Shown in pieces: positions 40,567 to 41,186 of a DNA stretch of 46,405 bases. The position numbers were made by a program, and so were the translations under genes. The notes beneath the pieces are model-generated. The model was not told the origin of the DNA and did no database searches. It saw nothing but the letters and a program-made list of their open reading frames with translations. The DNA lies in IMG/VR virus record IMGVR_UViG_2687453454_000004; one strand, 5' to 3'. Each line of letters starts with the position of its first letter. The stretch's first letter is position 1. The DNA comes from a virus (Duplodnaviria; Heunggongvirae; Uroviricota; Caudoviricetes).

Positions 40567-41004
40567 GTATCTAAAAGAAACACAGCACAGGCAAGATTAA
40601 ACAAAATTTGGTTGTAACACGGCGTATGGCACATGCGTCGTTAGCGGTCTGGGGACGTTAAAGGGGACAATCCACTCCTTGCTCGGGCAAACAAACCAGG
40701 TAGCCGGAATGTGCAAGTCAATGATGATGCTGATAAGACGCCTAACCAGCGTGGCGATTCGGTTTGACGCCTGGGAAGAGACCAGGGTGCAACGATGAGG
40801 ACATTTATGGAACCGCGACAAAGTGTGGTGCCGTAACTGGCTAAGTGCTCTCAGCGTTGTGGTGAATGCGCAGGCTGATGCGCGAAAGACATTGCAGCTA
40901 ATGCGGAAAAGAGCTGTTCGGCGGGGCAATTAAACGCCCGTGAGAGTCTGAAATAACCGCAAGCCGGAGATCAGCACCGGTCACCACAACAGCCACTGCT
41001 TTGG

Positions 41005-41055
41005 CGGTACCAGTTTGTACACTTGCTTCCGGCTGGTACCGCTCTTTTTACAAAA
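41005..41055 (+). promoter_or_regulatory. Hairpin plus boxA-like motif in the early-left leader (candidate nut/terminator element)
   Basis: 9-bp stem cggtaccag/ctggtaccg (41005-41013, 41033-41041) followed by CGCTCTTTTTACAAAA (41040-41055) resembling boxA. Confidence 0.3.
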
Positions 41056-41186
41056 CAGAGAAGAGCATCACCGGACGACGGGCTCATAACCAAATCCATC
41101 CGGGCGGCTGCCACCGCAGGTGTTCTTCTCTGTTTTGTGGAGAAACCAACCGACCTTGCAGGGTCGATATGATTAGGAGCAGCAAA

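Follow-up and report, generated by a model that had tools for sequence, protein, structure and literature searches.

A repressor-controlled early-left stretch of an N-less lambdoid prophage: a probable operon of non-coding RNAs

What does a lambdoid prophage without an N gene carry between its early-left promoter and its first early-left protein gene? The question is raised by about 620 nt (40567-41186) of a 46,405-nt viral sequence (IMG/VR record IMGVR_UViG_2687453454_000004; "the window" below means this whole stretch of DNA). A first-pass annotation had read these 620 nt as an untranslated leader with a boxA-like motif and nested inverted repeats, and had suggested N-independent, RNA-based antitermination or regulated termination or translation. 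Judged from the sequence, the locus belongs to a lambdoid prophage of the kind represented by SfV, mEp460 and cdtI, and is its early-left side. The S24 repressor gene is followed by an intrinsic terminator, which carries a terminator annotation in the SfV and phage Ayreon records. The PL-like promoter placed ahead of the leader is indeed there, as a near-consensus sigma-70 site with an operator in its spacer: TTGACA (40539-44) and CATAAT (40561-66), separated by 16 nt, match 11 of 12 consensus positions. The spacer operator, TGTACCTTTGGGATACA (TGTACC-N5-GATACA, 40546-62), matches the two operators between cro and cI (39742-58 and 39792-808), which justifies naming the promoter a repressor-controlled PL; transcription would start near 40573. 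Five operator-like sites are observed in the window against 1.2 expected by chance, those of the form TGTACC-N5-GGTACA being placed at 39742-39758 and 39792-39808, in the cro-repressor interval, and at 40546-40562, in the PL spacer. The downstream protein genes are, in order, yfdP (ATG at 41187; its product matches phrog_204), yfdQ (DUF2303), a low-GC ORF and a PrtN-like excisionase gene, and the opposite strand carries cro-like, CII-like, Ash-family and replication genes. The features of the locus are as follows.

39826-40500, + strand: S24 LexA-like repressor gene, with a terminator directly 3' and the promoter after it
40512-40536, + strand: intrinsic terminator of the S24 repressor (cI-like) gene, AACCTGC-TTCG-GCAGGTT and then a T7 run
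40539-40566, + strand: PL-like sigma-70 promoter (11/12 match), with the operator (40546-40562) in its spacer
40617-40794, + strand: A-core, a conserved structured RNA of 178 nt (covariance model, covariation in alignments)
40790-40859, + strand: S1 hairpin unit, CAACGATGAGGACATTTA ... TAAGTGCTCTCAGCGTTG, with a 16-bp stem and a 34-nt interior
40859-40987, + strand: S2, a tRNA-like scaffold RNA with closing stem GTGGTGA/TCACCAC, two hairpins and a 77-nt variable insert
41003-41049, + strand: T, an intrinsic-terminator-like hairpin (hairpin 41003-41043, U5 tract 41045-41049; -20.9 kcal/mol)
41050-41138, + strand: S1' hairpin unit, the long-range inverted repeat ACAAAACAGAGAAGAGCATCACCGG ... CCGCAGGTGTTCTTCTCTGTTTTGT, then GGAGAA
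41152-41189, + strand: small hairpin CGACC-TTGCAG-GGTCG, Shine-Dalgarno AGGAG (41175-79) and yfdP start codon (41187), from fold and frame check

The absence of a credible ORF from these 620 nt is borne out, as is their end coordinate, which the yfdP start codon fixes. No ATG ORF is found on the + strand between 40567 and that codon; the ORFs present use only TTG or GTG starts, encode at most 49 aa and have no well-placed Shine-Dalgarno sequence. Nor is there an N gene where lambda has N: the neighbours are the S24 repressor, YfdP, YfdQ, a protein of unknown function and the excisionase, and a check of the relatives found no small N-like ORF among the homologues. Current annotation of the stretch gives either nothing or spurious small ORFs. 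Where ORFs are annotated at homologous places elsewhere, they lie inside the RNA modules, whose lengths occur in all three mod-3 classes. A-core, in particular, has lengths between 153 and 182 nt that are spread over the three classes (13/12/18), so that it is not coding. A protein-coding gene hidden in the leader was ruled out by this indel pattern together with the ORF content. In SfV (locus L003, 2673-3150) orf33, which is not arginine-rich, and an apparent small gene on the opposite strand replace A-core and S1; the phage keeps an STnc100-like unit, T, S1' and yfdP. In E. coli K-12 CPS-53 the leader is deleted.

What, then, fills the stretch? RNA structure prediction, one of the checks first proposed, shows that conserved RNA structure dominates it. 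The + strand of the leader folds with z = -4.2 relative to dinucleotide shuffles, and each leader element is found again in relatives with compensatory changes. The view of a plain leader had missed these discrete RNA genes, which adjoin tRNA genes in P1 and other phages. The stretch is probably a repressor-controlled operon of early-left non-coding RNAs, and its PL transcript would stop at T and be processed to stable RNAs, yfdP then needing read-through of T. This reading builds on what is observed: a promoter with its operator, a lack of ORFs, structures that are conserved, the way these are distributed, and a single slot in which units are interchanged.

Similarity searches split the stretch into blocks of separate history. 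The segment 40606-40862 matches P1 sequence directly 3' of tRNA-Ile2, just ahead of ban, and also sequence directly 5' of tRNA-Arg in phiV10-like phages. The second block (40843-40990) has 95% identity to a P1 segment 3' of tRNA-Thr (trnT), and a 40-nt piece of it recurs in numerous unrelated phages of Klebsiella, Salmonella, Erwinia and Escherichia; in Ayreon and cdtI another sequence replaces its interior, with the flanking stem, GTTGTGGT/ACCACAAC, retained. SfV shares the last 190 nt. At least part of the stretch is carried by 2662 of 5426 complete E. coli genomes, and P1, Stx2-converting, cdtI-converting and SfV-like phages also carry parts of it; complete E. coli genomes contain 3890 matching places, of which 484 are on plasmids, presumably P1-like phage-plasmids. 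Rfam searches of the window and its sub-regions gave nothing in the leader (the only window matches, to C4 and isrK, lie elsewhere), ARAGORN found no tRNA genes in the window, and the Rfam tRNA model gave no match there at E <= 10. Over 40600-40899 the GC skew is +0.18 to +0.23 (G over C), a bias that, together with the dense structure, would shield an untranslated RNA from Rho.

The first module, A-core, has seven helices, comprising a 5' hairpin, nested helices, the hairpins H5 and H6 and a probable pseudoknot; the H5 loop (YUMACCA) is the one pseudoknotted, to GGUG or GGUU, and the H6 loop reads GAAGAGA. Covariance model R1 recovers A-core in the window at 135 bits (E = 4e-36), as the only copy in 46 kb. 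Rfam has no family that matches it, and no description of it was found in the published literature. In alignment A1 (43 sequences below 92% identity) 14 pairs of a 27-pair structure are changed on both sides, and 91.6% of cells are paired, against 34-46% with the partners slid. Alignment A3, in which 89 distinct sequences were fitted to the model, is 93% paired with 18 pairs changed on both sides; on four of five measures every shuffle fell short of the observed value, and on the fifth one in 500 attained it. The pseudoknot was added by a scan of all column pairs, which joined the H5 loop CACC to GGUG eight bases 3'; the window lineage has the compensatory AACC/GGUU. An alternative pairing of the H5 loop with the 5' end of S2 (UUCACCA with UGGUGAA) was rejected, the loop sequence being independent of the type of unit downstream and the loop pairing instead with the GGUG inside A-core. 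RNAalifold drew a long-range GCACAU:AUGUGC helix, all of whose columns are invariant; the local 5' hairpin, which covaries, was used in its place. The G-U pairs of A-core mark the + strand as the functional one.

A-core is found at more than 240 viral loci in two scans with invariant 19-22-mers, an anchoring that under-samples diversity and leaves the anchor columns unable to vary, and long stretches of it are kept invariant across genera. In a scan of one genome per species, 24 genomes carry A-core, 22 from Enterobacterales and 2 from metagenome bins labelled Bacillota, the latter probably misbinned. Its surroundings are of two kinds, repressor genes and tRNA genes. Of 190 distinct contexts, 88 have an S24 repressor gene that ends about 150 nt 5' of A-core in the same orientation, and 42 have a promoter-like site within 90 nt 5', against 3 of 190 control windows; in several prophages A-core starts within about 10 nt of the promoter. 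In P1 it stands between tRNA-Ile2 and ban (the order tRNA-Ile2, A-core, ban holds at 22 loci of P1-like phages) and in phiV10-like phages directly 5' of tRNA-Arg. Both tRNA genes are on the strand of A-core and at a fixed distance from it, tRNA-Arg beginning at +168 and tRNA-Ile2 ending at -91. Within the trnI-ban interval of P1 (locus L005, 1512-1696) A-core lies directly 5' of ban. One viral contig (L139) carries two copies about 800 nt apart (3992-4155 and 4799-4960). Weak partial matches precede S2 units in an Erwinia phage (L007, 833-918) and in another contig (L336, 1897-1928); they span the 3' half of A-core, with H5, GGCGA and H6 with its GAAGAGA loop. The family, or a sub-module of it, may thus reach beyond the invariant word used for the scans.

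A-core is followed by S1, a hairpin with arms CAAC...GAGCA and UGCUC...GUUG, which shows compensatory changes over 95 distinct arm pairs in relatives. The last G of its stem is +1 of the next unit, which is tRNA-Arg, S2 or the S2b variant. A second hairpin of this type, S1', accounts for the 16-bp inverted repeat first described at 41050-65 and 41123-38. That repeat is real, extends to 25-nt arms of 84% complementarity (41050-74 and 41114-38) and is part of the minimum-free-energy fold. Relatives keep the stem with other arms (CAACTGAAAGCGCG.../...CGCGCTCTCAGTTG and CAACACACAAGAGCA.../...TGCTCTTTTGTGTTG). The repeat is one copy of the recurrent S1-type hairpin and not a regulatory switch specific to the gene behind it. 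The small CGACC-TTGCAG-GGTCG hairpin beyond it, just ahead of yfdP, is present in the predicted fold; the motif scan listed it on the - strand.

The unit between S1 and T takes the form of a tRNA-like scaffold. The closing stem of S2 encloses a D-like hairpin (40868-40883, GCGC-AGGCUGAU-GCGC) and a T-like hairpin (40964-40980, CCGG-AGAUCAGCA-CCGG, that is CCGG-N9-CCGG), the latter abutting the 3' strand of the stem. The two loops, GCUGAU (40874-79) and AUCAGC (40970-75), are complementary over six bases, which suggests a kissing contact; relatives show only wobble changes there, with the D loop fixed by the search pattern. Of 185 copies of the 5' motif, 143 show the S2-type closure; they enclose 92 different inserts, 30-160 nt long. 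Alignment A2 of S2 is 94.7% paired, against 25-42% when slid, and closing-stem pairs 1-4 each show 4-6 pair types, with such combinations as GTGG/CCAC, CAGA/TCTG, GGAG/CTCC and GATC/GATC. The scaffold core, by comparison, is nearly invariant among unrelated phages, and S2 itself has 95% identity to the P1 copy 3' of trnT. In the trnT-tciA interval of P1 (locus L006, 1430-2340) three or four tandem units of S1/S2 type occupy a gap of about 900 nt that carries no annotation, and one of the trnT-tciA units matches STnc100 below threshold.

S2 occupies a slot that is held in relatives by tRNA-Arg(UCU) or an STnc100-like sRNA. Over the approximately 210 loci listed, the module order is the same (A-core, slot unit, then T and an ORF), and the unit 3' of A-core is tRNA-Arg at 31+6 loci, S2 at at least 23, S2b (the Ayreon/cdtI unit) at 29 and none recognised at 43. 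S2 also travels separately: at 79 of 82 loci in other phages neither A-core nor T accompanies it, and in some cases it forms a gene by itself, flanked by terminators. How close is it to a tRNA? The modules lie on the same strand as the tRNA genes and directly abut them, S2 starts where tRNA-Arg starts, and its 7-bp closing stem stacks on the abutting T-like hairpin to give about 11-12 bp, as in a tRNA minihelix. It differs from tRNA in having no anticodon arm, with the variable insert in that place, and in loops that would pair by six Watson-Crick pairs, with no tRNA elbow; neither ARAGORN nor Rfam detects it. Stable non-tRNA species made from a phage tRNA cluster are familiar from T4, whose species 1 and 2 RNAs are of this kind. 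Literature searches yielded no account of a tRNA-like scaffold whose loops kiss, or of one that trades places with tRNA-Arg in a slot.

T was first described as a hairpin followed by a boxA-like string, CGCTCTTTTTACAAAA. The hairpin is present, GCGGTACCAG (41004-13) pairing with CTGGTACCGC (41033-42) and being followed by TCTTTTTACAAAA; the stem is a perfect 10 bp, or 13 bp with flanking pairs. T thus has the GC-rich hairpin directly followed by a U-tract that is expected of an intrinsic terminator. A consensus terminator scan of the window does not list T because of its 19-nt loop; the tract has only five U's, and termination efficiency may be low. Homologues are present at 173 of the 243 A-core loci listed. 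They comprise 68 distinct sequences, whose stems show compensatory changes, whose energies have a median of -20.8 kcal/mol and which share the tail CCGCC(C)UUUU(U)ACA. A unit of the S2 class lies directly 5' in 97 of 107 loci with the window-type hairpin, and in SfV the Rfam STnc100 model aligns its own terminator to the T hairpin. T is therefore most plausibly the terminator of a small RNA of the STnc100 kind.

The slot and its terminator recall a known class of prophage sRNAs. STnc100 and PasD have been described as such, PasD through Hfq RIL-seq and STnc100 by RT-PCR (bioRxiv 10.64898/2026.05.13.724894; PMC12370729). In common with STnc100 (RF02076) and PasD, the unit is prophage-borne and has a multi-branch fold with a 6-7 bp closing stem beginning UGGUGAAU, a hairpin set directly against the 3' side of the stem and then a Rho-independent terminator. 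The SfV unit in the position of S2 and T scores 39.5 bits on RF02076, below the gathering threshold of 47, with its multi-branch body aligned there, and the P1 unit scores 33.9 bits. The S2 and T of the window give no match to RF02076 at E <= 10, and their kinship to STnc100 would rest on architecture and position. S2b was considered as a bona fide STnc100 and rejected, having no RF02076 match. The unit in the window differs from STnc100 and PasD in its D-like hairpin, the 6-bp loop-loop complementarity and the insert. It differs also in lying in a PL leader, apparently cut from a longer transcript; the described STnc100 and PasD genes are in the late, Q/stx-proximal region (bioRxiv 10.64898/2026.05.13.724894; PMC12370729).

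Could the leader instead serve antitermination, as was first proposed? The put RNAs of HK022 act in cis on RNA polymerase, through the zinc-binding domain of beta', to suppress termination, and A-core might be a processive antiterminator of this type that replaces N and allows read-through of T and later terminators. Such a role is possible, with a low probability. Like HK022, this is a lambdoid phage without N, in which a structured RNA would be made first from PL, 5' of terminators. A-core is the first element of a repressor-controlled transcript in about half its contexts, sometimes some 10 nt from the promoter, a terminator-like hairpin follows in most of the loci listed, and the invariant loops and probable pseudoknot suggest binding to a partner. 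However, the search for put-like elements failed to find similarity to the HK022 immunity region with putL and putR (blastn against window 38000-42000, best E-value 0.22). Put RNA is about 70 nt (PMC9378689) with two stem-loops, against 178 nt and seven helices, and is present in both early operons, whereas the window has A-core once only, the PR operon lacking it. Moreover, A-core is often missing from otherwise identical leaders (46 of 107, or 43%, of those with the same T), the working phage SfV has T and yfdP without it, and it also sits beside tRNA genes in non-lambdoid phages, as in P1, where it follows a tRNA, directly 5' of ban and without T. A working boxA is very unlikely. The consensus of boxA in rrn and lambda is YGCUCUUU, and the first eight bases of CGCUCUUUUUACAA match it, so that NusB/NusE and further Nus factors could assemble on the string and bring about antitermination, either of the rrn type or independent of N; three related leaders do have a perfect rrn-type boxA, TGCTCTTTAACAA, after a short hairpin just 3' of A-core (locus L164, about 3330-3400, and two similar loci). 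The motif in the window, though, is the 3' arm and U-tract of the conserved hairpin T. GCTCTT is found in just 59 of the 173 homologous hairpins, essentially the lineage of the window, and SfV has GTCCTTTTT in its place, the stem being kept through a G-U pair. Although an early leader with CGCUCUUU recalls lambda nut and rrn boxA, there is neither an N gene nor a conserved boxA with a boxB stem-loop, and what follows the string is a 25-bp stem and no boxB-type hairpin.

The resemblance to tRNA invites two further explanations. S2 and the other tRNA-like units might be decoys or sponges for tRNA-directed host enzymes or defences, such as anticodon nucleases or modification and processing enzymes, as the closing stem, the D-like and T-like hairpins with their loop-loop contact, the interchange with tRNA-Arg(UCU) and the near-invariant core would allow. 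We consider this rather improbable, since the place of the anticodon arm is taken by an insert free in sequence and length, which fits better as a variable working part, the unit is recognised neither by ARAGORN nor by the Rfam tRNA model, and no defence or counter-defence gene is linked to it. It is also conceivable that the modules are decaying, functionless remnants of a phage tRNA gene cluster: P1, phiV10-like phages and an Erwinia phage have them beside real tRNA genes, and T-arm-like fragments occur in the copies of P1 and of Erwinia phage Gungnir39. Decay, however, would hardly leave compensatory changes that maintain pairs in A-core, S1, S2 and T, long stretches invariant across genera and one module order over some 210 loci, and this explanation is highly improbable.

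How, then, might the non-coding RNA operon, the reading preferred here, work? On loss of the repressor, host RNA polymerase would start at PL near 40573 and transcribe in turn the 178-nt A-core, the S1 hairpin, the tRNA-like S2 and the GC-rich hairpin and U-tract of T. Polymerases halting at T would leave a primary non-coding transcript of about 480 nt, which would be cut to stable pieces. An RNase P-type cleavage is expected at 40859, because S2 starts at the position of the tRNA-Arg 5' end of relatives, and cuts in the long S1 stem are expected as well. S2 and T would then form a terminator-ended small RNA like STnc100 and PasD, with the variable insert as its putative working part and an Hfq-type sRNA action. 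No promoter is predicted between T and yfdP. Polymerases that read through T and S1' would pass into yfdP, yfdQ and the excisionase gene and, given the need for this read-through, T would also throttle the expression of the early-left proteins.

The function of A-core itself allows of a more tentative suggestion, which we hold to be possible but doubtful. It may represent a new phage RNA class that has its own function. It could then be a device made of RNA alone and independent of put, with either the transcribing polymerase or the processing of the adjoining tRNA or tRNA-like unit as its target; with the S1 hairpins, it would define a "cassette slot" where phages swap tRNA-Arg and small RNAs built on a tRNA scaffold.

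The STnc100/PasD type of prophage sRNA is already known. If the operon reading holds, its members would be part of a larger set of tRNA-like scaffolds, each with a variable insert and able to take the place of a real tRNA gene in the same slot, which suggests how phages build and shuffle small RNAs. A widespread RNA without a family, A-core, supported by covariation, would sit in model phages from which it can be deleted. Furthermore, the early-left genes of N-less phages, including the excisionase gene, would lie behind a terminator, and how N-less lambdoid phages pass early terminators would become a directly testable question.

Two further features of the window lie outside the leader. A C4 antisense RNA (82.8 bits) and an isrK RNA (59 bits) are found at 38395-38583 on the - strand, inside the ORF at 38107-38943, which encodes a 278-aa Ash-family protein and has the SfV annotation "immunity region". 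Their position suggests a P1 immI-like antisense control in the PR operon and raises doubt about the 5' part of the Ash-family ORF. Between yfdQ and the excisionase gene, the 277-aa ORF at 42577-43410 has a GC content of 26-33%, belongs to phrog_14996 and has no Pfam match; it looks like a moron of foreign origin.
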